Origin: Candidatus Limnocylindrales bacterium
GTDB lineage: Bacteria; Patescibacteriota; Microgenomatia; Levybacterales; UBA12049
Assembly (NCBI GenBank): GCA_035526025.1
Contig: DATLDE010000011.1
Coordinates: 49,374-113,373 of the forward strand
Reading direction: 5' to 3'
DNA: 64,000 nt
Positions 16,720-41,885 of this stretch are shown here, piece by piece. Position numbers and translations under genes: made by a program. The notes under the pieces are model-generated. The model was not told the DNA's origin and made no database searches. It saw nothing but the letters and a program-made list of their open reading frames with translations. Every line of letters begins with the position of its first letter. Within the stretch, counting starts at the first letter, position 1.

Positions 16720-17655
16720 TTAAGCAGCAATCTTGTCATAGTAAAATAACTTTCCTCTTACGTCGTCAAAGCAGCGTTTCGAAGTTAGAGCTGATGGTAT
16801 ACCATTTGCATGCCCAGCTTGTTGATAAGCTTGCCATTCTTCAGGATCAAATCTGTCAACATATTCACTGGCATCTCTAGCAATAAAATAAACTGGTATC
16901 CCCGCAGCTAAAGCTGTAGTTCCTTTTAAAAATTCACGCCTATCCTTTAATGGTTCTTCTTTCTTGTTTATATAAGACACTGCAGCAATTTCAGCTGCTG
17001 CAGCTGCTGCTACGTATGGAGCTGTAGCTAAAGTTAATTTTTTCATACCGTATAATGCGGTTACAGCATTTCTAGTGTTTTCACCTCGTCTCCCACCTTG
17101 CACTACGTGATATAGCTCATGAAAAACTACTCCATTTAGTGCAGAATTCCAATGCGGAAGAATGTCTGGGGCTATTTCTAAAACTATTGGATCTTCAGGA
17201 TACATAGGGTGACGTACTGTGCCTGAAAATCCGCTATGTCCATCTCCGTTACCCCTATCTTCTTTACGCATTTGATTTATTTCTAGTCCGTATTTTTTAA
17301 CGTATGCAGATACTCTGTCTACCTCAGAGACTCCTCCGTCAAGATAGGATAAGTAAGTTAGGGCACGAGACATAGTATCCAAATTGACTGCGGGTTGGCT
17401 TGGACTTCCATCTGATCCTCCACCTATTACTATAACAGTGTCAAACTTTCCAGCTTTCATGTATTTTTTTATTTCCTCTGCCTTGGGCTTTAGAAGTTCA
17501 GCAGTTTGTGGAGATATATCATAATCAGGACCAAATGTTCGGTTTTCATAGGCTTTACTTCCCAGGACCCCCCCCAATACAGTAGCAACTCCCGCTTTTG
17601 CACCTAAACGTAAGAATCTTCTTCTGCCTATGCTTACAGGATCTCTTTCCGCCAT
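16720..17655 (-). CDS. Tat-signal secreted protein with HExxH zinc-peptidase-like motif
   Basis: N-terminal RRRFLRLGAKAGVATVLGG. FHELYHV is an HExxH motif. A second internal Tat-like motif, DRREFLKGTTALAAGIP, is also present. Confidence 0.45.
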   Translation of the reverse strand: MAERDPVSIGRRRFLRLGAKAGVATVLGGVLGSKAYENRTFGPDYDISPQTAELLKPKAEEIKKYMKAGKFDTVIVIGGGSDGSPSQPAVNLDTMSRALTYLSYLDGGVSEVDRVSAYVKKYGLEINQMRKEDRGNGDGHSGFSGTVRHPMYPEDPIVLEIAPDILPHWNSALNGVVFHELYHVVQGGRRGENTRNAVTALYGMKKLTLATAPYVAAAAAAEIAAVSYINKKEEPLKDRREFLKGTTALAAGIPVYFIARDASEYVDRFDPEEWQAYQQAGHANGIPSALTSKRCFDDVRGKLFYYDKIAA

Positions 17656-17870: not shown

Positions 17871-18767
17871 ATGATGCAAGCCGAAAGAAGACCGAGCCGA
17901 TATGAGTTTGGTGATCTAAATAGAAGTCTTTTAAAGGATCTTCGCATTGTCCATTTGCCAGAAACCACCAGCACAATGGATTTAGTTGATGGATTAGCCA
18001 GATCATGGGCAAAAACAAAACGCGAATTCATACCCCCAGTTGTAATAATTGCGGATCATCAAACTGCAGGAATCGGCAGAGGAGATTTGGGAGAAGAAAA
18101 AAAGTGGCATGACATACCCGAGCTATCTATGCTTTTTAGCATTTTTATTCCAAAAGACAGAATAGAAGAAGAAAATCTACCCGAGTTATCAGATTTGGTT
18201 GCATTAAGAACATGCATGGCACTTAGAAAAGCAGGAGGAAATTTTCTTATAAAAGCCCCCAATGACATTGTTGACGCAGATACTGGTAAAAAGGTTAGCG
18301 GACTTCTTGTTAGATCGATTTATTCAGATGAAGGAGAATATTTGGGAGCAAATGTTGGAGTAGGTACAAATGTTCATTATAGAGATAATCAATTAGCTAA
18401 TTTTCCTGTGGAACCTGAATATGGAGCAATCTCAGTAGATAGCGCAACTGGTCAATTCAATAGTAGACAAGATTTATTGGTTGATATCTTAACTGGTATT
18501 TCCACAGTTGTTCCGGAAGCCGCCACTATCAATAAGGGAAGTGTTCATAACCCAACATCTGTTCATGCTATACAAAATGCCGAATGGAGAAGGCATTCAT
18601 ATTTACTAAATGAAAGGGTAGTAGTTAGAGAAGGTGAACAAGTCGTAGCCGAGGGAACAGTTGTTGACACAGAAATTGGTAACGGATTTATATTGAGATC
18701 AAATGATGGAATTGAGCATGCGGTACCGGTTTTTGGAACAGATACGAAGGTGAGGTTAGCTTCATGA
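17871..18767 (+). CDS. biotin--protein ligase (BirA-like; BPL catalytic domain + BPL_C-like C-terminus), paralog 1
   Basis: TSTMDLV...VVIIADHQTAGIGRGDLGEEKKWHD is a divergent BirA GRGRxGRxW block. The C-terminus VVVREGEQVVAEGTVVDTEIGNGFILRSNDGIEHAVPVFGTD is SH3-like as in BirA. Confidence 0.6.
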   Translation: MMQAERRPSRYEFGDLNRSLLKDLRIVHLPETTSTMDLVDGLARSWAKTKREFIPPVVIIADHQTAGIGRGDLGEEKKWHDIPELSMLFSIFIPKDRIEEENLPELSDLVALRTCMALRKAGGNFLIKAPNDIVDADTGKKVSGLLVRSIYSDEGEYLGANVGVGTNVHYRDNQLANFPVEPEYGAISVDSATGQFNSRQDLLVDILTGISTVVPEAATINKGSVHNPTSVHAIQNAEWRRHSYLLNERVVVREGEQVVAEGTVVDTEIGNGFILRSNDGIEHAVPVFGTDTKVRLAS

Positions 18768-19449: not shown

Positions 19450-22400
19450 ATGCCTGTATCCGTTAAAGAAAGATCAAGAACTCCAGAAGAAGGTGTCCGT
19501 CCGATTCGTAAAATGTTTATTGCAAACCGCGGTGAAATTGCTGTGCGTGCTGCAAAGGCATGTGAGAGAAGAGGGATTGCTGCTGTAATCCCATATTCTG
19601 ATCTTGAGTCCGAAAGAAATTCTTACGCAACTCGTTTTGTGGATAAGAACGCTAACAAAGGCTGGGAATTAGCAGCTATAGAGGGATATAGTGGCGACGA
19701 AACGTATGGAGATCCTAACGCAATACTACAAGAAGCAATTATACATAATTGTGACGCTATTTTTCTTGGATATGGATTTTTAGCAGAAAACGCTGATTTT
19801 GTTAAGCAAGTTGAGGATCATAATGAGGCAAGAAGAAGCCGAGGGGATGAACCTATTCGTTTACTTGCTCCTGATTCACGTGCCATGAGGCTTTTGGGAA
19901 ATAAAGCAAATGCTCGGGAGTTTGTAAACACTGTTAAAGTTGGCCTTGGAAGAAACAGAAGAACAGTGCCCATTGTTGAAGGATCTGATAAGCCTCGAAC
20001 CCAAATTGAAGAACTAATAAGGGATGTTGAGGGGGACGGAAAGAGCAAAGAAGGTATTGGATATCCTGTTATGGTAAAAGCTCCTGATGGAGGTGGTGGA
20101 ATGGGTAATATTGTAGCACGTACTCATGCTGAGCTTGATGCAGCATATAGGGATCTTCGCGGAACAGGAGAAGATCAAGGATTAATTGTTGAGCACTATA
20201 TAGAAAACGCAATTCATGTTGAGATGCAAGTTATTGCTGATCAACACGGTAACGTTGTGATTTTGGGTGAGCGTGATTGCACTCTTCAGAGAAGAAGTCA
20301 AAAACTGGTTGAAGAGTCCCCATCTCCACATATAAATGAACGGCAAAGGAAGAAAATAACTGAAGAATCTGCTGCAATTGTAAAAAAAGCAAAATATTCA
20401 GGACCGGTAACAATTGAAATGATCTTTGATAAAGACAGAGTTGATGAAGACGGGGATATGTGGCATGGTTTCATGGAAGCAAATACACGCTTGCAGGTAG
20501 AGCATGTTGTAACTGAAATTCAGACAGGAATAGATATTGTTGACACAATGATAGATGTTGCAGAAGGTCGTGAGTTAAAATTTAAACAAAAAGACATTAA
20601 GCCTCAAGGACATACTATGGAGCTTCGTGTTTACGCAGAAGATCCTGACCGTAATTTTGAACAACAAGAAGGAATTTTAAATGTATTAAGTCTTCCTGAA
20701 GATGTGGAGGGAGTAAGGATTGATAAAGGATATGAAGAAGGTGATGAAGTATCAGTAGAATACGACGGAACGATATTTAAAATAAATATACATGGCGTAA
20801 CAAGAGCTGACATGCTTGAGCGGACAAGTCAAGTAATTGCAATGTGTGAAATTGCTGGAGTTAAAAATAATCTTGCCTTTCTTGATGAGCTTATTAATAC
20901 ACCAGAATTTCAACGAGGAACAGTGAAAACGAAATTTGTCGAGGAATGGGTAGACCGTAGGCGAAAAGAGGCAAGAGACCAAATAATGAATGAGTTATTG
21001 GGCGAAAATGGAACATTTACTCCATTTCCCCCATCAAAACTTCGTGATAATTTTCCTGTAAATCCAACTTTTAAAACTTCTAACTCTGCTGAATCCACAA
21101 CGCTAGAGGAAAGCCTTGCGCGACAGAAAGAAAAAACAGGATTAGAAAGAGCGTCAGAATATGGAATTGTTGAAAGAGATGGAGTTAGGTACGTATTATA
21201 TCTATTAAATTCCAAATTTAATGCAGGAACATTTGGAAAAGAAGAAGGGTGGATGTTGACCGATGCAATTAAACTTGCACATAAGTACAATCTCCCATTA
21301 ATAACAGATACTTCAACAGCGGGTGTCAGAAACACTGAAGGATCATACGGAATAGATATGATGATGAACTCTACCAGCGATCTAAGTGAATATCCTCCAC
21401 TTTTTCATATTGACATACGGCATGGATACGTATTGGGTGGAGTTCCAGCCTCATATTCTGGAAGAGCCAATTTGTTTATGGCGGTTAATGATGACGCTAC
21501 CAAAATAGGAATAACTGGAGCAAATGCATTGGCTGCTGGAGAGGATTTGCATCCTACTGACTTAGAAGGTAAGTCAAGCACAAAAGCTGCTGACGCATAT
21601 AGAGCATTGAATGAAAACCAAGAAGACGAAGGCGCTCCAGTGCATACTCCCACCCGTCATCACGAGGAAAGAACTGGTGCTGATATGCTGCCAGCAAGTT
21701 TAACAGAAGCTGGGGCAAAGATTAGCCATATATTACAAATTCTAAAATTCACTCATCCCCACATCAGATCAGATCTAGATACACATGTCTTTAGTCCACA
21801 TGAGCAAATAGGATACGGACATATGCCTCACGCTGTTACTCTTTACGATTCAGGTGAACAACGACCCGGTTTTGTGCCCCCAACAATCAGCCGATTATGG
21901 GAAAGGTTTGCGAGTAATAGAGGAAAAGAAAAAATTATTTTTGCACCTGAAACTCCAGAAATCACAATCGGAGAGAGAAGAAGAATAGTAAAGCACCCCG
22001 ATAGACCTACAGGTCTTGACCTTGTTGATACTGGTTCCGAACTTTTTGATGATGCTGTATTTCTTGATCATGTAACTTTTGTCGATAATGTACACCAAGT
22101 TCTTCCCATTACCTCGGCCTTAGTTCGCTTTGGTGATCACCCAATTTTAGTGGTTACTCAAAATCGTCAAGAGAGAATCAATGACGCTGGAGAAAGAGAA
22201 ATATATTACAAACCAATTCGTCCTACTGATTGGGAAGCCACAAAACGTCATCTTCAATGGGCAGAAAATGTAGGTATCACAGTTATGCTAATGGGCGACA
22301 CTTCAGGAGCAGATTCAAGTAGGCAGGCTGAAGACCGGGGACAAGAAATTAAGCTCGCCGAAATATCGCAATTTGTTCAACAGCTAAAAGTGCCAGTAAT

Positions 22401-22875
22401 TACTAATCAATCTGGACTAGGGGGAAGTGGTAGTGTTCTTCCCTTTAGTTGGTATGGAGATTATGCAGCCATGTGGGAGAATGCCACAAGGTGGCCAGCC
22501 GATGCCCCAGCAATGAGAAGCTTTATTGAAGGAGTCTCTCTTCTTAAAGAATCAGACGCAACAGCAGAGGAGATAGCAGCACTTGATTTATTTGCAGCTC
22601 AATTTATCGATGTTACTGCTGAAGCGCATCTAGCAAAAGGTAGGATTGATAAAATACTTCTAGAAGGACCCGGAGGTGCGCATATAAACCCAAGAATAAT
22701 TGTTGATAGTAACAGGGAGATGTTGAGAGACGTGTTACCAAAATTACGACAAAGATATCTTGACGGCACTTTACTTGAAGAAAGAAGGAGAAGAAAAGAG
22801 CATGTTGCATTGATTGGCTCCAGACCAAATCCAGACTATGCAGCACAAGTTGCTGAATTAGAAGAAAGACTTTAA
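19450..22875 (+). CDS. biotin carboxylase - carboxyltransferase fusion protein (acyl-CoA carboxylase-like BC + PccB/AccD-like CT), no BCCP domain
   Basis: BC motifs MFIANRGEIAVRAAKACERRGI, GYPVMVKAPDGGGGMGNIVA, ERDCTLQRRSQKLVEESPSP, FMEANTRLQVEHVVTE. First CT subdomain PLITDTSTAGVRNTEG...GGVPASYSG. Second CT subdomain VPVITNQSGLGGSGSV. No (A/V)MKM biotinyl motif anywhere in the 1141 aa. Confidence 0.7.
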   Translation: MPVSVKERSRTPEEGVRPIRKMFIANRGEIAVRAAKACERRGIAAVIPYSDLESERNSYATRFVDKNANKGWELAAIEGYSGDETYGDPNAILQEAIIHNCDAIFLGYGFLAENADFVKQVEDHNEARRSRGDEPIRLLAPDSRAMRLLGNKANAREFVNTVKVGLGRNRRTVPIVEGSDKPRTQIEELIRDVEGDGKSKEGIGYPVMVKAPDGGGGMGNIVARTHAELDAAYRDLRGTGEDQGLIVEHYIENAIHVEMQVIADQHGNVVILGERDCTLQRRSQKLVEESPSPHINERQRKKITEESAAIVKKAKYSGPVTIEMIFDKDRVDEDGDMWHGFMEANTRLQVEHVVTEIQTGIDIVDTMIDVAEGRELKFKQKDIKPQGHTMELRVYAEDPDRNFEQQEGILNVLSLPEDVEGVRIDKGYEEGDEVSVEYDGTIFKINIHGVTRADMLERTSQVIAMCEIAGVKNNLAFLDELINTPEFQRGTVKTKFVEEWVDRRRKEARDQIMNELLGENGTFTPFPPSKLRDNFPVNPTFKTSNSAESTTLEESLARQKEKTGLERASEYGIVERDGVRYVLYLLNSKFNAGTFGKEEGWMLTDAIKLAHKYNLPLITDTSTAGVRNTEGSYGIDMMMNSTSDLSEYPPLFHIDIRHGYVLGGVPASYSGRANLFMAVNDDATKIGITGANALAAGEDLHPTDLEGKSSTKAADAYRALNENQEDEGAPVHTPTRHHEERTGADMLPASLTEAGAKISHILQILKFTHPHIRSDLDTHVFSPHEQIGYGHMPHAVTLYDSGEQRPGFVPPTISRLWERFASNRGKEKIIFAPETPEITIGERRRIVKHPDRPTGLDLVDTGSELFDDAVFLDHVTFVDNVHQVLPITSALVRFGDHPILVVTQNRQERINDAGEREIYYKPIRPTDWEATKRHLQWAENVGITVMLMGDTSGADSSRQAEDRGQEIKLAEISQFVQQLKVPVITNQSGLGGSGSVLPFSWYGDYAAMWENATRWPADAPAMRSFIEGVSLLKESDATAEEIAALDLFAAQFIDVTAEAHLAKGRIDKILLEGPGGAHINPRIIVDSNREMLRDVLPKLRQRYLDGTLLEERRRRKEHVALIGSRPNPDYAAQVAELEERL

Positions 22876-22877
22876 AT

Positions 22878-23726
22878 ATGAAAACAGAAGCTGCAATTAG
22901 TGTTCGACCTTATACCGAATATGATCAGAATAGAGTCAGATCTGCAGTGGGAGCATTGGGATACGATTTTCAATACCGTCAGATCACTGGAACCACCATG
23001 GATGATGCTCTGTCTTCGGAAAGACCTACTGTTTGGGTTGCTGATAGTCAAAGAAATGGCCGAGGAAGAACAGGAAATAGATGGGAAGACACATCAAAAG
23101 CAAATGTTCTGGTAACAGTTGCCGTCGACCGGATAAAACTTTCAAATCCTTTACTGCTTCCTCAGCTTGGTGCATTGGCTGCCTGCAGGGCTGCCAGAAC
23201 AGTTACAAAAAGTGATGCTCCTCAGATACGTTGGCCCTATGACCTAGAAATTGATGGTAAAAAGTTCGGGGGAGTATTGGTCGAACAAAAGGTTTCTGCA
23301 ACCGGAAAACCGTTAACCTTAATTGGCGTTGGAATGGATGTACATGATCAGTCTTTTCCTCAATTTCCTTGGGAAGCAGTAGCTCTTGAACAAGTACAAG
23401 GCATTGAATCAATAGATAGGAACGCACTATTAATTGAATTTACAAAAGAGTTAACTAGCCTGCTAGATATAATCGATATTGTTGATACTGATCCGCAAGC
23501 ATACGCAACATGGAACAACATTTGGATAGCTCATCAAAGCTTAGGAGGAAAACATGTTATAGCAGAGAATATCGGTCCAGATAAATTTGGGGACGTGGAG
23601 GGAATTGCAAGGGTACCTATGCTAGGAAGAGGGCTTGATTTAGTCACAACAGGTTTCGATGGATTGGAAAAAACTGTTACGGTTTCAAGCTGGAATCCCC
23701 TCTCTTTAATTAGAAACTTGGAATAA
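22878..23726 (+). CDS. biotin--protein ligase (BirA-like), paralog 2
   Basis: QRNGRGRTGNRWEDTSKANVLVTVAV matches the BirA signature GRGRxGRxW..G.xL. It has a C-terminal SH3-like domain. Its start lies 3 nt after the BC-CT stop. Confidence 0.65.
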   Translation: MKTEAAISVRPYTEYDQNRVRSAVGALGYDFQYRQITGTTMDDALSSERPTVWVADSQRNGRGRTGNRWEDTSKANVLVTVAVDRIKLSNPLLLPQLGALAACRAARTVTKSDAPQIRWPYDLEIDGKKFGGVLVEQKVSATGKPLTLIGVGMDVHDQSFPQFPWEAVALEQVQGIESIDRNALLIEFTKELTSLLDIIDIVDTDPQAYATWNNIWIAHQSLGGKHVIAENIGPDKFGDVEGIARVPMLGRGLDLVTTGFDGLEKTVTVSSWNPLSLIRNLE

Positions 23727-26186: not shown

Positions 26187-27212
26187 CTATTTATTATCTT
26201 CTTCCCGCAATACTTTTTTTATCTCTTCAATTGTTAAACGTTTTTCAAGTTGCAATTGCCGAATACGCTTGACTACATCAATCGCTGAATGCTCATACAA
26301 TTGGTATCCACTTGGAGTATGATCTTTTGCGTTTAGTAATCCCTCTTTGGTCCAGAAGCGTAATGTGTGAATTGTCTCTCCTGTTTTCTTGGCAAGGCTT
26401 CCTATTTTTAAAAGTTCTTCTTGTGGTTGAGTCTCAAACTCTTTAAATACGGCGTTCTTTTTACTAAGTGCGTTTAGGTATATATCAAGTGATCTTTCAA
26501 CAGAGGTAAAGATAATTGTATAAAAGGGCTGCATGTCTTTTTTATTTTGTGCTGATTCAAATGAGTTAAGATATGCAGTTCTTTCTTCATTTCGTATAAT
26601 ACCCATTGGGTACCCATTCAGCAAAAGAATTAAGTTCATTAATAGTCTAGTTGTACGCCCATTTCCGTCAATAAATGGATGAATACTGACAAACTTCATA
26701 TGAGCATCCGCTGCGATTTTAACAGGATGATCATCTTGTTGTGCCTGAAGCCAACTGATGAAATTGCGCATTTCGATATGTAGAGAATTGGGCATGGGAA
26801 ATTCTGCATTTGAGCCACGAATAAAAACCTCAGTCAACCTGTATTTACCTGCCCAGTTATCGTCAATACCGGTCAAAATAATTTTATGAATGTCCAAGAT
26901 GTCTTTTTCAGTAATAAATTGATGGCTTTTTCGTGTCCGCGCTAACTGATTTATGAAATCAAGCGCTTTTGCGTGATTAATTGCTTCTATTTGATCTTTT
27001 AGAGGTTTACCATTTATAACAGCTGTTATGCCCCTCTCGATCACCTCTGCAGTTTCAATACGTGTTAAGGTGTTGCCTTCAATAGCGTTTGAGGAATATG
27101 TAAGCTCAACTTTTAGCCATTCTTCAATATTCTTTCGTAATTCCGGGGGAATTGGCTGATGAGAGTCCAGCTGCTTTTTTTTCTTAGTTAGCCTTAGAAG
27201 TAGATTATCCAT
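26187..27212 (-). CDS. Fic/DOC family protein fused to a C-terminal MerR-type HTH
   Basis: HPFIDGNGRTTRLLMNLILL is the Fic motif. An AIEGN inhibitory motif is present. The C-terminus LLKIGSLAKKTGETIHTLRFWTKEGLL is MerR-like HTH. Confidence 0.75.
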   Translation of the reverse strand: MDNLLLRLTKKKKQLDSHQPIPPELRKNIEEWLKVELTYSSNAIEGNTLTRIETAEVIERGITAVINGKPLKDQIEAINHAKALDFINQLARTRKSHQFITEKDILDIHKIILTGIDDNWAGKYRLTEVFIRGSNAEFPMPNSLHIEMRNFISWLQAQQDDHPVKIAADAHMKFVSIHPFIDGNGRTTRLLMNLILLLNGYPMGIIRNEERTAYLNSFESAQNKKDMQPFYTIIFTSVERSLDIYLNALSKKNAVFKEFETQPQEELLKIGSLAKKTGETIHTLRFWTKEGLLNAKDHTPSGYQLYEHSAIDVVKRIRQLQLEKRLTIEEIKKVLREEDNK

Positions 27213-27263: not shown

Positions 27264-27461
27264 TTAATCACGCCTGACCCAAAACTCTAGAACACGTCTT
27301 TTCTGGGGATCAATAGTGATTTTGTCCCAATATTTCTTAAGATGTTTTGTATCAATTTTCTCTCCCTCTAAACCATAATTTATCAATTGCTCAAGCTTCC
27401 AAATAACATGTTTTTCAGAATTTTTCTCAAGTATTGCTGTGTCCGTACTCCAATTATGCAT
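27264..27461 (-). CDS. small hypothetical protein upstream of the Fic-MerR gene
   Basis: 65-aa Lys/Glu-rich ORF in the same orientation as the Fic gene. Uncertain. Confidence 0.3.
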   Translation of the reverse strand: MHNWSTDTAILEKNSEKHVIWKLEQLINYGLEGEKIDTKHLKKYWDKITIDPQKRRVLEFWVRRD

Positions 27462-27572
27462 AAGTCTATTCTACCAGATCCTAAGCGAATATTCAGCATA
27501 AACGGATGGCCTCAATTTAGCCTCAAAACAGCACTTGACAGAAATGGGCCACATTATGTATACTTCTTGTAT

Positions 27573-27845
27573 ATGAATACAACATCTATACATATAAAAA
27601 TAGAAGCTGATATTAAAGCACAAGCTCAAAAAACAGCAGAAGAACTAGGTCTTTCTTTGAGCGCTGTTATGAAAGCATTGCTCAAACAATTCATTCGCAC
27701 AAAACATTTATCCGTAGGATTAAGCGAAGAGCCTTCTTCCTACATGCTTGAAGCATTAAAAAAATCAGATAAAGAATATAAAGAAGGCAAAACTTCCCCA
27801 AGTTTTACCGCAGTTGAAGACTCTTTCAAATGGCTCGATCAATAA
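27573..27845 (+). CDS. RelB/DinJ-family antitoxin
   Basis: MNTTSIHIKIEADIKAQAQKTAEELGLSLSAVMKALL is an RHH DinJ-like N-terminus. Start at the internal ATG of track ORF 27387..27845. The stop overlaps the toxin start. Confidence 0.6.
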   Translation: MNTTSIHIKIEADIKAQAQKTAEELGLSLSAVMKALLKQFIRTKHLSVGLSEEPSSYMLEALKKSDKEYKEGKTSPSFTAVEDSFKWLDQ

Positions 27846-28124
27846 ATGAGCATGTCTATCAAGTATTCAACCACATTCAAAAAACAATATAAGAAAGCTC
27901 CAAAAAAGATACAAGAAAAAGTAAAAGAACGAATCAGTATTTTCGTTCAAGATCCTACAAATCAACAACTGAATAATCATGGTCTCACAGGAAAATTTCA
28001 GGGAATACGCAGTATAAACATCACAGGAGATTGGAGAGCAGTTTATTCAATACGCTTAAATTCACAATCACAAAAGGAGTATTATTTCGAGCTAGTGGGA
28101 ACACATAGCCAACTATATAAATAA
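27846..28124 (+). CDS. YafQ/RelE-family toxin
   Basis: HGLTGKFQGIRSINITGDWRAVYSI...FELVGTHSQLY matches the YafQ/RelE core. Confidence 0.7.
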   Translation: MSMSIKYSTTFKKQYKKAPKKIQEKVKERISIFVQDPTNQQLNNHGLTGKFQGIRSINITGDWRAVYSIRLNSQSQKEYYFELVGTHSQLYK

Positions 28125-29750: not shown

Positions 29751-29887
29751 TTGACCATTTGAAAAAAGTTTGCTATTATCAATTTATGAAATCACAAAAA
29801 TTTGTAACATTATCACTCCTTCTTAACCCGTAAGGGCGGGGAAGAATGTTGTGAATTGAATACCCGCCAACTGAGCGGGTTTTTTTG
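29751..29887 (+). promoter_or_regulatory. promoter + 15-codon Leu-rich leader ORF + intrinsic terminator (putative attenuator)
   Basis: Promoter: TTGACC 29751-56, 17-nt spacer, TATTAT 29774-79. Leader ATG at 29786 encodes MKSQKFVTLSLLLNP* (29786..29833). Terminator hairpin CCCGCCAACTGAGCGGG plus a T-run (29864..29887). The upstream GGGCGGGG (29834-41) could form an antiterminator. Confidence 0.5.
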
Positions 29888-29912
29888 TGGTTTGAAAGGA
29901 GGTGGGAAAAAT

Positions 29913-30233
29913 ATGAGAAATGAGCAAGTACCATTAGAGGTATTAAGAGTAGCAACTGATACAAGATGGCATGATCAGGTTGCAGAAGTAATGAATAAAA
30001 GAAGACCGGGGGCTGTTACGGTCTTTGAGGCAACAGATGATCAACCTAAAGGATATTCATATCCTGTTGAAAGTCCGTTTAGAGCATTAACTAGAGCTGC
30101 ACAAAATTTTGACACAGCTTTAGAAGCTATTACACCTGACGCAGATGCCAGAGCAATAGAAGTCAGAAAAGCAATTAAAAAAGTTTATAAAGATCAAACC
30201 AAAAAAAGATTTGGTAGACGCAGGGGAAAATAA
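29913..30233 (+). CDS. hypothetical basic protein
   Basis: Start at the ATG after the RBS AAAGGAGGTGGG. Track ORF is 29856..30233. Arg-rich tail. Confidence 0.45.
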   Translation: MRNEQVPLEVLRVATDTRWHDQVAEVMNKRRPGAVTVFEATDDQPKGYSYPVESPFRALTRAAQNFDTALEAITPDADARAIEVRKAIKKVYKDQTKKRFGRRRGK

Positions 30234-30292: not shown

Positions 30293-30700
30293 ATGAATAG
30301 AAACATAGAAGGAGATACAAGAGAAAGAATGGTAACTGGTGAAAATTTAGCCATGCAGTTAGCAGGTAAGGTTACAGCAACTCTTGATACAATGTCAGAA
30401 AAAGGTATACCAGATGGTGCTACTGTTGGGCGGTTAAAAGGTGTATTCCCACAAATCAGAGATAGGGATATTGATCGCATCTTGGGTAAATCGTCAAAAA
30501 GAATGGGAACCATAGTGGTACCACGCGATAGTGTTGTTAAATTGGTTGTAAGCGTTGGATATCCAAGTCAAGTTGGAAATAAACCCTTTGATAAAGCACT
30601 GGAAAGTGCAATTCGTGATGAAAATAGAAAGAGGGCCGAAGCGCAACGCCTTAAAAGAAATGGAGGAAGTGTTCAGTCTAGATCTTCCGGAGGAAAATGA
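30293..30700 (+). CDS. hypothetical basic protein
   Basis: RBS AAGGAGGTGAG precedes the ATG. 135 aa. Confidence 0.45.
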   Translation: MNRNIEGDTRERMVTGENLAMQLAGKVTATLDTMSEKGIPDGATVGRLKGVFPQIRDRDIDRILGKSSKRMGTIVVPRDSVVKLVVSVGYPSQVGNKPFDKALESAIRDENRKRAEAQRLKRNGGSVQSRSSGGK

Positions 30701-30724: not shown

Positions 30725-30855
30725 TTGACGAAAAAATATACTCGTGGTATTATAGCTTAGATGAAGGCGAAATTATTTTTAAATGAAATTAGTATTAACT
30801 CCTAGAGAGAGGTTCTATCGCGTTTGCAATGGACCTCCCGAACGGGAGTTTTTTT
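30725..30855 (+). promoter_or_regulatory. promoter + short leader ORF + hairpin/T-tract upstream of ilvA (putative attenuator)
   Basis: Promoter: TTGACG 30725-30, 17-nt spacer, TATTAT 30748-53. Leader ATG at 30761 encodes MKAKLFLNEISINS* (to 30805). Hairpin CTCCCGAACGGGAG plus 7 T (30835..30855) lies immediately before the ilvA ATG. Confidence 0.45.
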
Positions 30856-32106
30856 ATGCTTATGGAAGTTACTGTTAAAACAATTGATGACGCCGCGAAA
30901 ACACTGGAAAGTGTTGTGAAAAAGACACCTCTTCAGCACAATAAAAGATTATCTGATCAATTTGGTGCAAATATTTATTTTAAACGTGAAGACTTACAAG
31001 ACGTAAGGTCATATAAGATACGCGGTGCATATACTCTGATGAGCACTCTTAGTACGGAGGAGAAAAGTAAAGGGGTAGTTGCAGCGAGTGCCGGAAATCA
31101 TGCACAAGGCGTTGCGATGAGCGCAAGCCTTCTTAAGATAAAAGCGACCATTTTCATGCCGGTTATCACACCGCGTCAGAAAATAAACAAGGTAAAGCAT
31201 TTTGGAAAAGATTTTATAGAAATAAAACTTGTCGGGCAGGTATATGACGAAGCTTCCGCTGCAGCGTACGCATATTGTAAGGCACAAAAAATGGTATATG
31301 TTCACCCATTTAATGATCCACGAACAATGTCAGGGCAGGGAACAGTAGGTAAGGAGATATTGGAACAACTTGAATCATCACCTGATTATATTTTCTGCCC
31401 GATTGGCGGAGGAGGGCTTATATCAGGACTTGGTACTTACGTAAAAGAAAAGTATAAAGATACAAAAATAATTGGTGTTGAACCCAAAGGCGCTCCGGCG
31501 ATGTATGAATCCTTCAAACAAAAAAAAGTTATCACGCTAAACGATATAGATACATTTGTTGATGGTGCGGCAGTAACGACAGTCGGGGACCTGAGCTATA
31601 AGATCGCAAGCCTTGTAACAGACAAAATCGTTGTCAGTGATGAAGGGAAAATATGTACAACTATGATTGAGGTATATCAGAATGAGGGCATCATAGCAGA
31701 GCCAGCTGGTGCCTTATCAATTTCAGCAATAGATGATTTTGCAAAAGAAATAAAAGGCAAAACTGTAGTCTGCATTCTAAGTGGTGGGAATAACGATATT
31801 CTGCGCTATCCAGAAGTTATGGAAAAAAGCCTGGTGTATAGAGGGCTCAAACACTATTTTCTGATAGAATTTGCACAAAAACCAGGCCAGTTAAAACAAT
31901 TTTTAAATCACGCCCTCGGTCCAAATGATGACATTGTACTTTTCGAATACATAAAAAGAAATTCAAGAGAAAAAGGACCTGCATTAATTGGGGTTGAGTT
32001 AACAAAGAAAGAAGATTTATCAACACTTTTGGAAAGAATGAAAAAAATGCAGTTGCGTTATACTAAAATAACAAGTGATGATCCACTTTATGGATTTATA
32101 TTATGA
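30856..32106 (+). CDS. ilvA: threonine dehydratase (threonine ammonia-lyase) with C-terminal ACT-like regulatory domain
   Basis: TPLQHNKRLSDQFGANIYFKREDLQDVRSYKIRGAY and SAGNHAQGVA place it in the PLP fold-II family. Track ORF begins at 30829, but that ATG lies inside the hairpin. 30856 or 30862 is the more likely start. Confidence 0.75.
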   Translation: MLMEVTVKTIDDAAKTLESVVKKTPLQHNKRLSDQFGANIYFKREDLQDVRSYKIRGAYTLMSTLSTEEKSKGVVAASAGNHAQGVAMSASLLKIKATIFMPVITPRQKINKVKHFGKDFIEIKLVGQVYDEASAAAYAYCKAQKMVYVHPFNDPRTMSGQGTVGKEILEQLESSPDYIFCPIGGGGLISGLGTYVKEKYKDTKIIGVEPKGAPAMYESFKQKKVITLNDIDTFVDGAAVTTVGDLSYKIASLVTDKIVVSDEGKICTTMIEVYQNEGIIAEPAGALSISAIDDFAKEIKGKTVVCILSGGNNDILRYPEVMEKSLVYRGLKHYFLIEFAQKPGQLKQFLNHALGPNDDIVLFEYIKRNSREKGPALIGVELTKKEDLSTLLERMKKMQLRYTKITSDDPLYGFIL

Positions 32107-36661: not shown

Positions 36662-37012
36662 ATGGCAAGAGTAAAAAGAGGAACTATATCACGAAGAAAA
36701 CACGTTAAATTACTTTCCCTTACAAAAGGGTTTAAGGGTACGAAAAGTACACTTATAAAAGAAGCTAAATCAGCTAGTCTTCATGCTGGGCAATACGCAT
36801 ATCACGGAAGAAAAATCAAAAAAGGAGACTTCAGGACACTTTGGATCACAAGAATTGGTGAAGCTGTAAAATTACAAGGCCTTTCATACAGTGTATTTAT
36901 AGATAAACTTAAAAAAGCAAATATTGAACTTGATCGAAAAATATTAAGCAATCTATTGGTTGAGGACCCGGCAGCATTCAAGCACGTTGTTGACTCAGTC
37001 AACAAATCTTAG
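36662..37012 (+). CDS. rplT: 50S ribosomal protein L20
   Basis: MARVKRGTISRRKHVKLLSLTKGFKG. Confidence 0.9.
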   Translation: MARVKRGTISRRKHVKLLSLTKGFKGTKSTLIKEAKSASLHAGQYAYHGRKIKKGDFRTLWITRIGEAVKLQGLSYSVFIDKLKKANIELDRKILSNLLVEDPAAFKHVVDSVNKS

Positions 37013-37120
37013 TACGATAAACATATGATTAACAAGCAAATTTCTTGGAACTTCTATTATTTTACCACCCTTACCGGGATGGTTAAGTAATGGTAAATTA
37101 ACAAAATACCAAAACATAAA

Positions 37121-37143
37121 CCTCCCAGTTGGAGGTTTTTTTT
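37121..37143 (+). terminator. intrinsic terminator after rplT
   Basis: CCTCCCAGTTGGAGG followed by an 8-T run. Confidence 0.6.
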
Positions 37144-37161
37144 ATTGAGAATATAAAACAT

Positions 37162-37536
37162 ATGATAAGAAATGAATTAAAACGAGACACTGTTGAGATA
37201 TGGCAACGAAGAAATTCAGGAACACCTGGGGGCGGAGATGTTATCACAGCTACATTATTTCCGTTGCCTCATGGCGCTGGTGTCCATAAATTTGATACTC
37301 CAACAGGTACTGTAACTGTTGATATGAGATTTGAAAATATAAATCCTGCAAACGAAACACAGCACGCTGTCGTAAAAGGTCCTCACACTGGTGGAAAAAT
37401 CGAGGTAGAGCTTAAAAATGGACGGGGGAGGTCAACGCCCACTCCAGATGTAGAAGTAGTTTGTGATGTATTCAAACTCACAAATGCATTAAAGGCAATG
37501 CACGCGCATGATAGTCGCCCTAGAAAGGGCTGGTAG
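37162..37536 (+). CDS. hypothetical protein (Gly/Thr/Pro-rich)
   Basis: Start at the internal ATG (MIRNELKR...) after the terminator. Track ORF is 37129..37536. Confidence 0.4.
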   Translation: MIRNELKRDTVEIWQRRNSGTPGGGDVITATLFPLPHGAGVHKFDTPTGTVTVDMRFENINPANETQHAVVKGPHTGGKIEVELKNGRGRSTPTPDVEVVCDVFKLTNALKAMHAHDSRPRKGW

Positions 37537-37549
37537 CCTAGTAATATAT

Positions 37550-37694
37550 TTGACTAAATTCAAATAGTTTGATATACTATATTCAGATGAAGAACCTAAC
37601 AAAAATAAATGCATTCTTTTTTGCCTTTGCGTAAGCGGAGGTAGTTTTTGCGTTAAAAAAACTAACTAACCTCCGAAAAGCGGAGGTTTTTTTA
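37550..37694 (+). promoter_or_regulatory. Phe-leader transcription attenuator (pheM/pheL-like) upstream of pheA-pheS-pheT
   Basis: Promoter: TTGACT 37550-55, 17-nt spacer, TATACT 37573-78. Leader ORF 37587..37634 encodes MKNLTKINAFFFAFA*. GCGGAGG (37635-41) can pair with CCTCCG (37670-75) as an antiterminator. The terminator CCTCCGAAAAGCGGAGG plus 7 T spans 37670..37693. Confidence 0.7.
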
Positions 37695-37707
37695 TGGAGA
37701 AAATTAT

Positions 37708-38931
37708 ATGACAAGAGCTGAAACAGCAACACAACCACCGAGTGATGTTTTGAGAAAAACTGAGGGTAGTCCTCTGCGTACTTATGCATATCTTAAGCCA
37801 AATGGTAACTTTACTCACTTGGCAGCTTTAGAATTGATAAAGCGACCTCAGCATGAATCTGCTATTCTAATTGGTGAAAGCGGAATCGATAATCTATTTG
37901 GATCAATTATATCTGGGCGTACATCACACGCGCTTATTCCCATTGAAAACTCCACTGAAGGACCTGTACCAAAGTCTCACGCTAATCTTTTTGAACATGA
38001 TGTTACCATAGTAGGCGAAATGAATATGCCTATAATTCCGTCTATTTATTATCAAGATAAAACCACGGTTAAAAAAGTCGCATCAAAAGACTCAGCTCTA
38101 GGACAGTGCAAGCAACACATCAGAAAGCATTTTGGAAGCGATGTAGAATTAATTGAAATGGAAAGCACAGGGGATGCTGTTGCGCTTGCAGCAAAAGATC
38201 CAACCGTAGCAGCTATAGGAAGTTCGATATCAGCCAGGGAACAAGGTATAGATAATTTGCATCAAATAGATAACTTTAATGACAAAGACTTAAACGCGAC
38301 AACATTCGCATTAGTTCAAAAGGGTGGCGAGCTTCCTTCACCCACAGGAGATGATAAAACAACTTTTATAATGACGATTGAGGACTCAAAAGGAAAATTG
38401 GTAGATGCTCTAGATGTGCTCGCAAAAAAAGGAGTAGATCTGAATAAAATTAAATCAATAAATAAAACTCTTGATACCGTAAGCTTCTTAGTTTCGGCAG
38501 ATGGACATGTTGATGATGAAGGCCCGACTGGCGCAGCGCTAATGGCTCTTGCCGAATCAGGTGTTATTGTAAAAAAACTTGGATCTTATCCAAAAGATGA
38601 TTACGCACCTCCTGAAAATAATGAAGATTATGATTTTGACGCAGCTATTGAGCGAATACAAAATGAAGCCAAAAACGGTGATGAAATGGATAAGAATAAA
38701 ACAATTGTTGTATTCACCCTACAAGATAAGCCAGGAGCACTTTTGGGTGCTTTAAAACCATTTGCTGACGAAGGAGTGAATTTAACCAAAATTGACTCAC
38801 AACCAAGCGGTATTCCAAATGAACATATTTTTTATCTTGCGTTTGATAATCAAACACCTCGTGCCGATGAGCTTATTACAGAATTAGGCAAACACTGTCA
38901 TCATGTTGCAAAATTGCAGCGTGCAGCATAA
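37708..38931 (+). CDS. pheA: prephenate dehydratase with two C-terminal ACT domains
   Basis: IPIENSTEGPV is the PDT ENS.EG motif. ACT-like segments TTFIMTIEDSKGKLVDALDVLAKKGVDLNKIKS and IVVFTLQDKPGALLGALKPFADEGVNLTKIDSQPS. Confidence 0.75.
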   Translation: MTRAETATQPPSDVLRKTEGSPLRTYAYLKPNGNFTHLAALELIKRPQHESAILIGESGIDNLFGSIISGRTSHALIPIENSTEGPVPKSHANLFEHDVTIVGEMNMPIIPSIYYQDKTTVKKVASKDSALGQCKQHIRKHFGSDVELIEMESTGDAVALAAKDPTVAAIGSSISAREQGIDNLHQIDNFNDKDLNATTFALVQKGGELPSPTGDDKTTFIMTIEDSKGKLVDALDVLAKKGVDLNKIKSINKTLDTVSFLVSADGHVDDEGPTGAALMALAESGVIVKKLGSYPKDDYAPPENNEDYDFDAAIERIQNEAKNGDEMDKNKTIVVFTLQDKPGALLGALKPFADEGVNLTKIDSQPSGIPNEHIFYLAFDNQTPRADELITELGKHCHHVAKLQRAA

Positions 38932-38961
38932 AAATAATACCTTCTATGATACAATTAATTT

Positions 38962-39993
38962 ATGGAATATGAACTTCTTACAATCAAGAATAACGCTATC
39001 TCACTTATTCTTGACGCAAAAGAAAGAAAAGAACTTGAAGAAATAAAACTGCAGTTCCTTGGACGAAGCGGAGAACTCACCCAAGCCTTAAAAGGGTTAA
39101 AAAATCTATCAGTAGATGACAAGCCAAAAGTAGGCAAGATTGCGAATGAAGTAAAAAATATAATTGAGGATGCTATAAAACAGAAGCAAACTGAGCTCGT
39201 ACATCCAAAAAAAGCCACCCAAAAAATTGATACATCAGAGCCTGGAATTACTCCGGAAATAGGACACCTACATCCAATGACTCTTACTCTTTTTGAAATG
39301 GTCGAGATATTTAAAAAAATTGGTTTTCAGGCAGCTGATGGACCTGATATAGAAACAGATCATTATAATTTCGAAATCTTAAACATTCCCAAAAATCACC
39401 CGGCCCGTGATACCCAACAATCACTTTACCTCGATACAAGAAATTCAAAGACAAATCCTGGTGAAATTTTACTTCGTACACACGGCTCAAACATGCAGGG
39501 AAGAATTATGGAAAAAACAAAACCACCTATAAGAGCAATTTATCCAGGAAAAGCATTTCGATATGAACAAGTTGATGCATCACACGGATTTGAATTTTGG
39601 CAACTGGAGGGACTTGCAATCGGAACTGATATCACCATGACAAATTTATTTGGAACAATGTCATACATTGTCAAAGAGTTTTTTGGGAAAGATACAAAAG
39701 TAAAATTTGTATGCCACAATTTTCCATTTGTTGAACCGGGAGCAGAAGCTTACATGAGTTGCACTGTTTGCAAAGGCAAAGGATGTAGTTTTTGCAAACA
39801 TTCAGGCTGGGTTGAAATTCTAGGGTGCGGGATGATACATCCAAAAGTTTTAAAAGCTGTTGGATATGATTCTCAAAAATATTCAGGCTTTGCATGGGGT
39901 ATGGGACTATCACGTATGGTAACACTTCGCTACATGATGGATGATCTTAGGCTCTTGACCAATCCTGATATGCGAATATTGGAACAATTTTAA
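38962..39993 (+). CDS. pheS: phenylalanyl-tRNA synthetase alpha subunit
   Basis: Class II core (FRYEQVDASHGFEFWQLEG, GWVEILGCGMIHPKVL). Confidence 0.9.
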   Translation: MEYELLTIKNNAISLILDAKERKELEEIKLQFLGRSGELTQALKGLKNLSVDDKPKVGKIANEVKNIIEDAIKQKQTELVHPKKATQKIDTSEPGITPEIGHLHPMTLTLFEMVEIFKKIGFQAADGPDIETDHYNFEILNIPKNHPARDTQQSLYLDTRNSKTNPGEILLRTHGSNMQGRIMEKTKPPIRAIYPGKAFRYEQVDASHGFEFWQLEGLAIGTDITMTNLFGTMSYIVKEFFGKDTKVKFVCHNFPFVEPGAEAYMSCTVCKGKGCSFCKHSGWVEILGCGMIHPKVLKAVGYDSQKYSGFAWGMGLSRMVTLRYMMDDLRLLTNPDMRILEQF

Positions 39994-39995
39994 TT

Positions 39996-41885
39996 ATGCT
40001 TGCACCATTATCCTGGCTTAAAGATTACGTAAATATAAAAAGTAATATAAAATCACTTACTGAGCGATTGGGTGAGGTAGGACTTGGTACTGAAGAAATG
40101 ACCAAAACCTCAGATGGCGACACAATTCTTGATCTTGAGATCACTCCAAACAGACCTGATTTGCTTTCAATTATCGGAATTGCCAGAGAAGTTGCAGCTG
40201 TTGAAAATACAAAGATAAAGTATCCGGACTTGAAGACTGATCTTAACCCCAAAAAAAATGCAGATATTCTACCTCTTAAAATACATCCTAACTACGAAGT
40301 TACACCCAGACTTACTGGAATAGTTATAAATAACGTAACTGTTAAAGAATCACCTGATTGGTTAAAAGAAAAACTTAAAAAACTTGGACAACGCCCTATT
40401 AATAATATAGTTGACATCACAAATTTTGTGATGTATGAGCTGGGTAATCCTATTCATTCTTTTGATTACCATAAAATTGCAGGTCATGAAATTTACGTAC
40501 AACAGTCAAAAGGTGGTGAAAAATTTGAAAGTGTTGATGAAATTGTATATCACCTACCCAAAGACGCGATAATTTTTGAGGACACAGAAAAAATATTTGA
40601 TTTAGTCGGCATAAAAGGAGGGAAAAATAGCGGAACTTACAATGACACAAAAGCTGTATTTATAGCAGTCGAAGTCGATGATCCTGTCCTTATTAGAAAA
40701 GCATCCCAAGCACTGAGCCTCCGATCTGATGCAAGCGCTATATTTGAGCGAAACGTAAACAGAGGCGGAACAATTGATGCGCTAAAAAGAACTGTTGATT
40801 TAATTTTAGAATGCGCTGGTGGTGAAATCGCGAGCGAATTATATGATCTTAAAAAAGACAATTTTGAACCCTGGAAACTATCCTTACGAATTGAGAGATT
40901 AAATAAGTTATTAGGAATTGAAATTTCAGAAAAGAATGTACTGGAAATACTCGAATCACTCAATTTATCTCCAAAGCTTAGTAGTGAAAAAGTAGAATGT
41001 ATAATACCTACTTACAGAAATGATTTACAGATTGAGGAAGATCTAATTGAGGAGGTTGCACGTATTTACGGGTATAGTAAATTCCCGCAAATTCTACCAA
41101 GTGGTGAGATTCCAATAGATGAAGTCCCATATTTTAAAGATTACAAAATCGATGAAAAGGTAAAAGGACTTCTGGCTGCTGCAGGATTTTCTGAAATATA
41201 TACATATGGTTTAGTTAGTGAAAAAGATCTACATAATCACGGAGTAAGTTCTGAAAAAACACTTAGAGTAGATACTCCAGTCAGTCGGGAATATGAATAT
41301 CTTAGGCCAAATCTTTTGATCAATTTAAAAAAAGCGCTTTATCAGAACAGACTTATATCTGCAAAAATAAATTTGTTTGAGCTGGGAAAGGTTTATAATG
41401 GTAAAAAAATAGATGAAGCCTCTGAGAAATACAGTCTTGCCGGGATAACCAATAGCAAAAGTTTCCTAGAGGTAAAAGGAATATTGGAAAGAGTCTATAA
41501 AAATTTGAACATCAACGAGGATCCAACTGAGTATATCGAGTTCATCGATGAGGGAGTATACTTTGAACTTGATTATTCATCTTTACTGGAAAAAACCAAT
41601 CAAACAAAATTATTTATTCCTGTCCCCAAATTTCCACCAATATTTGAAGATATGTCATTTATCGCATCAGAAAACGTGTTAATCGGGGACATAATTAAGA
41701 CTATGAAGTCTCAAAGCACTCTTATTTCAGAAGTCACAGTGCTGGATAAATATAGAGATACCAGAACATTTCATATAATTTATCAAAGTCGCGAAAGGAA
41801 TTTAAAAACAGAAGAAATCATTGAGATTAGAAATAAAATCATAAAAGCCCTAAATGAAAAGCATAACGCTAGACTAAAAGAATAA
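39996..41885 (+). CDS. pheT: phenylalanyl-tRNA synthetase beta subunit (short form)
   Basis: MLAPLSWLKDYVNIK N-terminus and B3/4 and B5 region motifs. 629 aa. Confidence 0.85.
   Translation: MLAPLSWLKDYVNIKSNIKSLTERLGEVGLGTEEMTKTSDGDTILDLEITPNRPDLLSIIGIAREVAAVENTKIKYPDLKTDLNPKKNADILPLKIHPNYEVTPRLTGIVINNVTVKESPDWLKEKLKKLGQRPINNIVDITNFVMYELGNPIHSFDYHKIAGHEIYVQQSKGGEKFESVDEIVYHLPKDAIIFEDTEKIFDLVGIKGGKNSGTYNDTKAVFIAVEVDDPVLIRKASQALSLRSDASAIFERNVNRGGTIDALKRTVDLILECAGGEIASELYDLKKDNFEPWKLSLRIERLNKLLGIEISEKNVLEILESLNLSPKLSSEKVECIIPTYRNDLQIEEDLIEEVARIYGYSKFPQILPSGEIPIDEVPYFKDYKIDEKVKGLLAAAGFSEIYTYGLVSEKDLHNHGVSSEKTLRVDTPVSREYEYLRPNLLINLKKALYQNRLISAKINLFELGKVYNGKKIDEASEKYSLAGITNSKSFLEVKGILERVYKNLNINEDPTEYIEFIDEGVYFELDYSSLLEKTNQTKLFIPVPKFPPIFEDMSFIASENVLIGDIIKTMKSQSTLISEVTVLDKYRDTRTFHIIYQSRERNLKTEEIIEIRNKIIKALNEKHNARLKE

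Follow-up and report, generated by a model that had tools for sequence, protein, structure and literature searches.

The leader peptide genes catalogued as pheL, 53 of them unique, come from Gammaproteobacteria (PMC3082878). Two other described systems bear on the locus considered here. In Corynebacterium glutamicum the leader peptide of aroR-aroF carries a Phe-Tyr-Phe motif and is reported to control a 3-deoxy-D-arabinoheptulosonate 7-phosphate (DAHP) synthase operon through ribosome stalling (PMC11802643, PMC4046766, citing Neshat et al. 2014); in mycobacteria, a leaderless short open reading frame (ORF) with a run of cysteine codons forms the first cistron, senses the cognate amino acid and controls the genes downstream (bioRxiv 10.1101/834739). 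Here we describe an element, designated unit D, that lies directly upstream of a prephenate dehydratase (PDT) gene in a 64,000-nucleotide stretch of bacterial DNA (contig DATLDE010000011.1, positions 49,374 to 113,373; hereafter the window) and that has the anatomy of a phenylalanine-codon attenuator. A preliminary description of this DNA had placed such an attenuator ahead of pheA-pheS-pheT. All coordinates refer to the window and to its forward strand unless stated otherwise.

The promoter of unit D (37550-37578) consists of TTGACT (37550-37555), a 17-nucleotide (nt) spacer and TATACT (37573-37578), with a TG forming an extended -10 element, and matches the consensus at 10 of 12 positions. 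Eight nt beyond the -10 element, a distance too short for a Shine-Dalgarno sequence, is the ATG (37587) of a 15-codon leader ORF, MKNLTKINAFFFAFA (37587-37634, TAA at 37632-37634), in which codons 10, 11, 12 and 14 specify phenylalanine (TTC at 37614 and TTT at 37617, 37620 and 37626). Four segments with alternative pairing partners overlap or follow the end of this ORF. R1, TGCCTTTGC (37622-37630), overlaps leader codons 12-15 and pairs with R2 in a 10-bp hairpin (37621-37644); R2, GCGGAGGTAGTT (37635-37646, core GCGGAGG at 37635-37641), begins 1 nt after the stop codon and can pair with R1 or, as the antiterminator, with R3; R3, AACTAACCTCCG (37664-37675, core CCTCCG at 37670-37675), can pair with R2 or, as the terminator, with R4. 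R4 and its T-run, GCGGAGGTT plus T7 (37680-37693), supply the 3' arm and the U-tract of an intrinsic terminator, with GCGGAGG at 37680-37686, R4 reaching 37688 and T7 at 37687-37693. The terminator, an 8-bp stem (37668-37688) followed by T7, thus stands between the leader ORF and the first structural gene, which starts 14 nt after the end of the T-run. The promoter, the 8-nt spacing, the 15-codon Phe ORF and the antiterminator and terminator segments of the preliminary description were all found base for base where it had placed them; R1 was absent from it, and its addition completes the classical 1:2, 2:3 and 3:4 layout.

Folding of the leader region returned the mutually exclusive terminator and antiterminator as they had been named, together with the R1:R2 hairpin. 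The free unit D RNA is predicted to form the 1:2 hairpin and the 3:4 terminator (-30.1 kcal/mol), and compared with shuffled sequences the leader RNA has a fold z-score of -3.40. When a ribosome mask was placed at codons 10-12, R2 was left free and the 2:3 helix formed; when the mask was placed at codon 14 or at the stop codon, R2 was covered. Only stalls at codons 10-12 were productive in the window, and these codons (TTC TTT TTT, 37614-37622) are the putative regulatory site. Hairpins of the type CCTCC...GGAGG followed by a T-run occur only three times in the 64-kb window, each after a leaderless short ORF, and on this count we rejected the idea that they are a generic intergenic feature of the genome.

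A coincidence has to be considered at this point, in which a terminator or other structural element happens to stand near an unrelated promoter and an ORF that is untranslated or senses nothing, or in which the region encodes a small RNA or a small protein. Phe codons are common in T-rich sequence, and in this AT-rich region promoter-like hits numbered 38 against 35.2 in shuffles and terminator-like hits 11 against 7.8, so that neither kind of hit is enriched singly. The case therefore rests on conservation and not on single motif matches. The subfamily of dehydratases with two ACT domains comprises about 20 proteins, and the DNA around 12 of these was fetched; including the window, 12 loci were informative, with L099 left out (its contig begins 69 nt before the gene). 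The dehydratases of the informative loci are 33-59% identical to that of the window. Among the matches listed, a profile scan of genome contigs with the 20-sequence dehydratase alignment returned only generic dehydratases (27-36% identity, from other phyla) and no close relative.

At all 12 loci the unit sits directly upstream of the dehydratase gene, and it does so in three different gene neighbourhoods. A promoter of the form TTGAC[ACT]-N17-(TG)nTAnAnT is present at 11 of them, and L092 has the extended -10 TGCTATTAT only. The leader ORFs comprise 14-26 codons with 3-7 Phe codons, and each contains FFF or FYF; besides that of the window, the leader peptides are MNKQIVNSAFFFTFA (L081), MKNLIKTNAFYFTFAKRG (L084), MQKTLNNGSFFFTFA (L086), MKNLVKVNAFFFTS (L088), MKKQILVNTFFFTS (L090), (GTG)INVNNQVNFFFTFA (L091), MIKGLNFGFYFTYPTGR (L092), MKSNQIKFYFFYFTSQTGRLVGALKA (L093), MKQYSNVTIFGFFFTLHQFGAGFTFA (L096), MQKPERKAFGFFFTFA (L100) and MQNQRGNFNFFFTFA (L102). 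Every locus has R2 at or around the stop codon, then R3, and then R4 with T6-8. The stop codon of L084, L092 and L093 is shifted downstream and the ORF crosses R2, which would have an equivalent effect for an unstalled ribosome.

The sequences of the pairing segments vary between loci. The common form of R1, R2, R3 and R4 is CCTTCGC, GCGGAGG, CCTCCG and CGGAGG; L092 and L093 have CTTCCC, GGGAGG, CCTCC[CT] and GGGAGG, L090 has CCTCC, CGGGGG, CCCCG and CGGGG, and L100 has CCTTCGC as its R3. A whole-leader MAFFT alignment misaligned R3 across the variable loops, and we used hand registers and register-free folding instead. Pairs were counted in hand-registered, in-register 9-mers and compared with 500 column shuffles and with slid registers. 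In helix 3:4, 88.9% of cells were paired and four pairs were changed on both sides, and helices 2:3 and 1:2 each had 86.1% of cells paired and five pairs changed on both sides. Nearly all of the 500 shuffles fell below the real helices on most measures, and the slid registers, with 31-64% of cells paired, fell below them without exception.

For the register-free test the terminator was identified by local folding beside the T-run, the RNA was cut off where R3 ends, and the ribosome was represented by a mask extending 13 nt beyond the A site of the aromatic triplet. The terminator was called locally because R1 and R3 are nearly identical in L096, L100 and L102, where a global fold pairs R1 with R4. 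Local folding gave a terminator at all 12 loci (-8.7 to -29.6 kcal/mol). A ribosome at the aromatic triplet allowed 6-11 nt of R3 to pair around the stop codon at all 12 loci (-12.0 to -28.2 kcal/mol), and one at the stop codon left an upstream partner for only 0-4 nt of R3. Shuffles of the spacer reproduced the antiterminator result in 0-2 of 200 trials per locus.

Taken together, these comparisons of sequence indicate that the alternative helices are under selection. The Phe codons and hairpins of the preliminary description thus have their counterparts in relatives, with FFF or FYF and the three alternative helices kept at 12 of 12 loci. The reading frame, the aromatic triplet, the distance to R2 and the three helices are retained at diverged loci with compensatory changes, and in the approximately 1.6 Mb of DNA that was fetched the combination of an aromatic-rich short ORF with a perfect terminator is almost confined to these lineages; a chance origin is, against these observations, very improbable.

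We propose that unit D belongs to the E. coli pheL type of transcription attenuator, in which a translating ribosome senses Phe-tRNA, and that it controls the dehydratase gene; we put the probability of this reading at roughly 0.8. The anatomy, the conservation at 12 loci, the covariation and the masked folding agree on it, and the stalling, the termination and the response to phenylalanine are predicted from them. Transcription would start 0-2 nt before the ATG at 37587, and a 70S ribosome would load onto the leaderless message. With ample charged tRNA-Phe the ribosome would reach the TAA and cover R2, R3 would then pair with R4, and the 8-bp hairpin with its U7 tract would end transcription about 15 nt before the gene. 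A shortage of charged tRNA-Phe would stall the ribosome at codons 10-12 (FFF), where it would cover R1 and leave R2 free, and R2 would pair with R3 before R4 is made; the terminator would be blocked and RNA polymerase would enter the gene. In the case of no ribosome, the 1:2 and 3:4 hairpins would both form, and the default would be termination.

Several observations weigh against this proposal. The fourth Phe codon (37626) lies inside R1, and a stall there would mask R2 and favour termination. When R4 is present, the minimum-energy fold is the terminator even under a stalled ribosome (-18.4 kcal/mol); because this fold is preferred once R4 has been made, read-through rests on the usual kinetic argument. 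The registers used in the pair counts were chosen by us, which biases them towards pairing. The hairpin was not seen in the 69 nt available upstream of the L099 dehydratase. Finally, the capacity for prephenate synthesis is not evident, the dehydratase being the sole aromatic-pathway gene found within the 64-kb window.

The identity of the sensor also has to be weighed. T-box leaders control pheS in many Gram-positive bacteria, and a protein- or tRNA-mediated form of attenuation (T-box, TRAP-like or PyrR-like) could be imagined here on that general precedent. No T-box or other riboswitch was matched in the window at the gathering score, nor at E <= 10 over 29.6-39.1 kb; the leader, at about 100 nt, is too short for a T-box, and a conserved ORF that carries cognate codons typifies sensing by the ribosome. 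We regard this class of mechanism as exceedingly improbable.

Consideration of the sequence around R4 raises the question of a translational layer. The GGAGG at 37682-37686 within R4 stands 7 nt before an ATG (37694) that opens a five-codon mini-ORF, ATG GAG AAA ATT ATA TGA (37694-37711), the stop codon of which overlaps the start of the dehydratase gene (ATGA). Most of the 12 loci have an ORF of 1-5 codons that opens 6-8 nt downstream of R4 and closes at the beginning of PDT or close to it (MEKI, MEKIW, MGKIW, MPKL and MEKNI are examples), and the start that follows R4 in L092 shares the reading frame of PDT. The same hairpin that terminates transcription would then, in a second and less certain layer, hide a GGAGG ribosome-binding site ahead of the mini-ORF and the dehydratase, and the mini-ORF would couple their translation; we consider this possible, at somewhat less than even odds. 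It has to be kept tentative because Shine-Dalgarno use is weak in this genome.

Carried further, the same observations would make control mainly translational, with R3:R4 hiding the GGAGG, leader translation deciding its exposure, and the T-run acting as a spacer with little or no termination. Nearly all 12 loci have the GGAGG at a distance of 6-8 nt from a following ATG, GTG or TTG, and in many the short ORF runs up to the dehydratase start and stops on it; the in-frame start of L092 fits as well, and a threonine dehydratase gene elsewhere in the window (unit B, below) has its ATG (30856) directly after GGGAG and T7. A GC-rich stem of 6-9 bp with an invariant T6-8, on the other hand, is a canonical intrinsic terminator, and a spacer needs no pure T; together with the weak use of Shine-Dalgarno sequences this makes a mainly translational control unlikely in our view. 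The transcriptional and translational mechanisms are not mutually exclusive, and transcription attenuation remains our preferred reading.

The preliminary description had seen in this locus a pheM-type leader with pheA inserted between it and pheS, so that one attenuator could control pheA-pheS-pheT as a unit. The order rplT, leader, PDT, pheS, pheT is indeed found in nine loci, and no terminator-like site was found between PDT and pheS, because of which read-through transcripts probably extend into pheST. Three loci, however, have the leader and the dehydratase without pheST downstream. L092 has greA-N and a phosphoribosyltransferase gene upstream of the dehydratase and small unknown genes after it, L100 has an AlaX-like gene after the dehydratase, and L102 has a divergent gene upstream of it and no pheS downstream. 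In L093, moreover, a further attenuator and a gene for a 76-residue protein separate PDT from pheS. Because the leader is present in L092, L100 and L102 without pheST, gene order indicates that it belongs to the dehydratase gene and that its analogue is pheL-pheA and not pheM-pheST; the proposed insertion is not supported.

Control of the three genes as one unit is also doubtful. In the window an extended -10 element, TGATACAAT (38947-38955), stands 6 nt before the ATG of pheS (38962-39993, identified with Pfam) as a probable separate leaderless promoter of pheST, and in nine of the nine loci with pheS the element TGnTACAAT or TGGTATTCT is found 6-7 nt upstream of the pheS ATG, without a Shine-Dalgarno sequence. 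From this conserved element we infer a separate pheST transcript, and it is reasonably likely that pheST is transcribed from a leaderless promoter of its own, to which read-through would add a supplement at most. A single pheM-like attenuator for pheA-pheS-pheT, with the dehydratase inserted behind an ancestral pheST leader, is on these grounds quite unlikely. The pheT gene of the window (39996-41885, Pfam) encodes a short protein of 629 residues, in which the N-terminal tRNA-binding domain was not seen in the Pfam scan; the pheT of L084 (6330-8281) is split into two ORF calls, and L086 has a NUDIX gene (6302-6748) between pheS and pheT.

The gene downstream of unit D (37708-38931) encodes a dehydratase homologue of 407 residues with Pfam matches to PDT (8.8e-32) and ACT. 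Residues 24-302, covering the PDT domain and the usual ACT domain, match PDB 3mwb (E 1.9e-24), and an extra C-terminal ACT domain (residues 326-403) resembles the regulatory ACT domain of phenylalanine hydroxylase (E 7e-13). NCBIfam NF008865 scores the protein at 193.7 bits, below its cut-off of 219, and at the conserved TRF motif the window protein has TTF. No chorismate mutase domain was found in it by Pfam or by comparison with NCBIfam and PDB. The name pheA given in the preliminary description is thus apt as far as it denotes a prephenate dehydratase, of PDT-ACT-ACT architecture, and misleading as far as it implies an E. coli-type enzyme with a chorismate mutase domain.

Leaderless initiation, which the preliminary description had suggested for the leader ORF, finds support beyond unit D. 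The -10 element and the start codon are 6-11 nt apart at the 12 loci, none of which has room for a Shine-Dalgarno sequence. In the window an extended -10 element occurs 5-9 nt before the start codon of 9 of 72 genes, trmD, rpsP, tyrS and pheS being among the genes concerned, and thrS has TATAAT 6 nt before its ATG. Counted over candidate 5' starts the element has a frequency of 9 in 137, compared with 1 in 381 for in-frame ATG or GTG codons inside genes. Shine-Dalgarno-like motifs precede 12 of the 72 genes, compared with 46 of 628 in-frame start codons inside genes, a weak use among the window genes. With extended -10 elements enriched before starts genome-wide, leaderless mRNAs seem common in this genome, and translation of the unit D leader ORF from a leaderless message, with a start site deduced from the promoter, is likely. 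TGnTAnnnT is found 5-9 nt before an ATG, without a Shine-Dalgarno sequence, at starts 3647, 17871, 24419, 25530 (reverse strand), 29105, 34113, 44558, 49808 (reverse strand), 51147 and 51715; tyrS probably starts at 44558 and not at the TTG at 44468.

The window has a G+C content of 37% and encodes type IV pilus parts, DUF5660 and DUF5665. Its pheS has named relatives at 64-67% identity, labelled 'Patescibacteria group' and Levybacteria, and the relatives of the dehydratase lie on contigs of 1.0-1.14 Mb and come also from groundwater samples filtered at 0.1 μm. The NCBI label 'Candidatus Limnocylindrales' (Chloroflexota), carried by this 212-kb contig, looks wrong because G+C content, gene content and the pheS relatives point to Patescibacteria and Microgenomates; the organism is probably a Microgenomates-like member of the Patescibacteria, or candidate phyla radiation (CPR), that was mislabelled or mis-binned. 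The relatives' contig sizes and the names of the pheS relatives also bear out the earlier impression of a reduced genome. According to Pfam the order of genes around unit D is thrS, infC, rpmI, rplT, a gene for a 124-residue orphan protein, the leader, the gene for the 407-residue dehydratase, pheS, pheT, an 89-residue ORF and, on the opposite strand, a PBP1A-type gene.

A second element, unit C (36990-37145), lies 560 nt upstream of unit D, between rplT and the orphan gene. It consists of a promoter (TTGACT-17-TACGAT, 36990-37018), a leaderless 21-codon ORF with Trp, Tyr and Phe codons (MINKQISWNFYYFTTLTGMVK, 37025-37090) and a terminator, AAACCTCCCAGTTGGAGGTTT plus T8 (37118-37145), and has a fold z-score of -2.62. 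Unit C is kept in L081, L084, L088 and L093 with W and four or five F or Y residues in its leaders: MNKFAAKWFYFYYTS in L081, where it precedes a distant DAHP-synthase-like gene, KNLQLNWYYFYFTS... in L084, MEKQTFWNYYYFTS... in L088 and MKKYQQSFWFYFYF... in L093. The orphan gene downstream of it in the window (37162-37536) had no Pfam, NCBIfam or PDB match; its product of 124 residues has three homologues among 5.8 billion proteins and three among 1.8 billion representatives, and with a pLDDT of 35 its AlphaFold model was of too low a quality to be used in searching for similar folds. Paralogy of the small unknown proteins at 29856-30233, 30293-30700 and 37129-37536 was rejected on comparison.

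Two further candidates, units A and B, lie 7-8 kb upstream of unit D. Unit A (29751-29913) has the promoter TTGACC-17-TGCTATTAT, a leaderless 15-codon ORF with Leu codons (MKSQKFVTLSLLLNP, ATG 29786) and the segments GGGCGGGG, ACCCGCC and GCGGGT plus T7; its fold z-score is -3.13, and it precedes two unknown genes (29913-30233 and 30293-30700). L096 has a unit like it, with an identical terminator and the leader MKIRSLSIRSILLITR, which also follows a DUF5660 gene and stands before a 2-hydroxyacid dehydrogenase gene. Unit B (30725-30858) has the promoter TTGACG-17-TGGTATTAT, a leaderless 14-codon ORF (MKAKLFLNEISINS, ATG 30761) and the hairpin CTCCCGAACGGGAG plus T7, directly before the ATG at 30856 of a biosynthetic-type threonine ammonia-lyase (IlvA, NCBIfam 622 bits). 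This is a weak candidate, with two Ile codons only and a fold z-score of -1.28. A scan of metagenome contigs with the ilvA-like protein gave mostly unrelated low-GC lineages, and only L103 was informative; its ilvA (66% identical) has an Ile-rich ORF upstream, MQTIISPIISII, and a hairpin without a T-run.

Similar arrangements were seen at two more places in the fetched DNA. In L115 (13937-14738), which belongs to another low-GC lineage, a near-leaderless ORF, MVNNKANQNYYFFFFFYPTLGGVVF, is followed by R1-R4-like segments and CCCCGCC...GGCGGGG-T7 before a gene of the transaldolase/FSA family; such a unit could represent aromatic-amino-acid control of erythrose-4-phosphate supply. In L099 (1294-3537), a contig of 3.6 kb with the most divergent dehydratase, there are three successive GACCTCCC(G/A)AAATGGGAGG-T7 hairpins, each standing after a short ORF and before an unknown gene, and one of these ORFs is aromatic-rich, MSFANTSFYYFTYTIFQKGGSF.

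Some features of the window lie apart from these units. A probable integrated mobile element (10106-17655) adjoins a tRNA gene (10229-10310) and carries a large serine recombinase (10106-11827), a replication-relaxation protein (12838-13629) and a TrwB/HerA-like coupling ATPase of 919 residues (13789-16548). A protein of 1141 residues (19450-22875) fuses a biotin carboxylase to an acetyl-CoA carboxylase carboxyltransferase-like domain, and its gene has biotin/lipoate ligase family genes on both sides (17871-18767 and 22878-23726), which is unusual in a small genome. Two proteins with Fic/DOC domains, one of them fused to a MerR helix-turn-helix, and a RelB/YafQ toxin-antitoxin pair are encoded at 7392-8426 (reverse strand), 26187-27212 (reverse strand) and 27387-28124.

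Viewed jointly, the units might mean that Patescibacteria/Microgenomates-like lineages run a small regulon of homologous leaderless attenuators (for Phe, for Trp/Tyr/Phe and, as candidates, for Leu and Ile) in which the 3' arm of the terminator doubles as a ribosome-binding site; this is a speculative extension that we hold to be doubtful as it stands. If it were true, the near-identity with enterobacterial pheL (AFFFTF-stop-GGGAGG...CCTCCC) would be due not to convergence but to common ancestry, or to joint horizontal transfer of leader and gene, and 'auxotrophic' symbionts would actively regulate a retained last step of phenylalanine synthesis. CPR bacteria are usually described as lacking amino-acid biosynthesis and having few recognisable regulators. 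The mechanism proposed for unit D is a textbook one; its presence, conservation and multiplicity in CPR genomes are unexpected. A textbook amino-acid sensor appears to be kept across a CPR clade on a lone prephenate dehydratase with two Phe-type ACT domains, with a sister aromatic sensor adjacent, and would give a concrete handle on what these uncultured cells make and sense, namely charged tRNA-Phe. For annotation it suggests that such short ORFs, and the internal promoter of pheS, are being missed in these genomes. In the literature searched we found no paper linking leader-peptide attenuation with Patescibacteria, and no relevant link between prephenate dehydratase and CPR bacteria.

Among the known systems, the Rfam family Phe_leader (RF01859) was the only regulatory family to match, with an end-to-end alignment (model positions 1-125). 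Neither unit reaches the gathering score of 55 bits, unit D being given 32.9 bits (E 0.02) and unit C 38.7; the relatives score 29.6-55.9 bits, and only L093 (55.9) passes, the rest lying at 29.6-45.9. The lineage is on the fringe of this family.

For unit C the best parallel is aroR-aroF, with its mixed aromatic codons; unit C differs in belonging to another phylum, in having Trp in its leaders too, and in preceding the 124-residue orphan in the window. The mycobacterial system has the leaderless translation that is predicted for unit D, and our data would add to Actinobacteria another bacterial group in which translation of leader peptides seems to begin on leaderless messages; the mycobacterial system differs in sensing Cys and not Phe and in its actinobacterial host, whereas unit D has a canonical intrinsic terminator and the four-segment layout. 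The leader of pheM-pheST resembles unit D in being a Phe-rich leader with a terminator, downstream of rplT and upstream of pheST in map order. Unit D, in contrast, is attached to the dehydratase, stands a 1.2-kb gene before pheS, persists without pheST, and is followed by a pheS with its own promoter-like element.

The likeness to pheL-pheA of E. coli is the closest. There, too, the leader has 15 codons and a Phe run ending ...AFFFTF(P/A), and in MG1655 R2 is TGGGAGG and R3 GGCCTCCC, followed by GGGGGGCC-T6. In both systems R1 overlaps the last codons, R2 (GGGAGG in pheL, GCGGAGG in unit D) stands directly after the stop codon, R3 is CCTCCC or CCTCCG, and a hairpin with a T-run lies just upstream of a prephenate dehydratase gene; pheL and the CPR units are collinear in alignment. 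The two differ at the 5' end, where the leader ORF of unit D starts 8 nt after the -10 element and E. coli pheL has a normal 5' leader with GGAAACAAAC before the ATG, and at R4, which in unit D carries GGAGG and is followed by the putatively coupled mini-ORF. They differ also in the enzyme, which in comparison with E. coli PheA lacks a chorismate mutase domain and has a second ACT domain, and in the Patescibacteria-like host. Unit D would thus extend pheL-type attenuation well beyond Gammaproteobacteria, as a taxonomically distant new member of the classical Phe leader-peptide attenuators that is probably leaderless and perhaps gates both transcription and translation.

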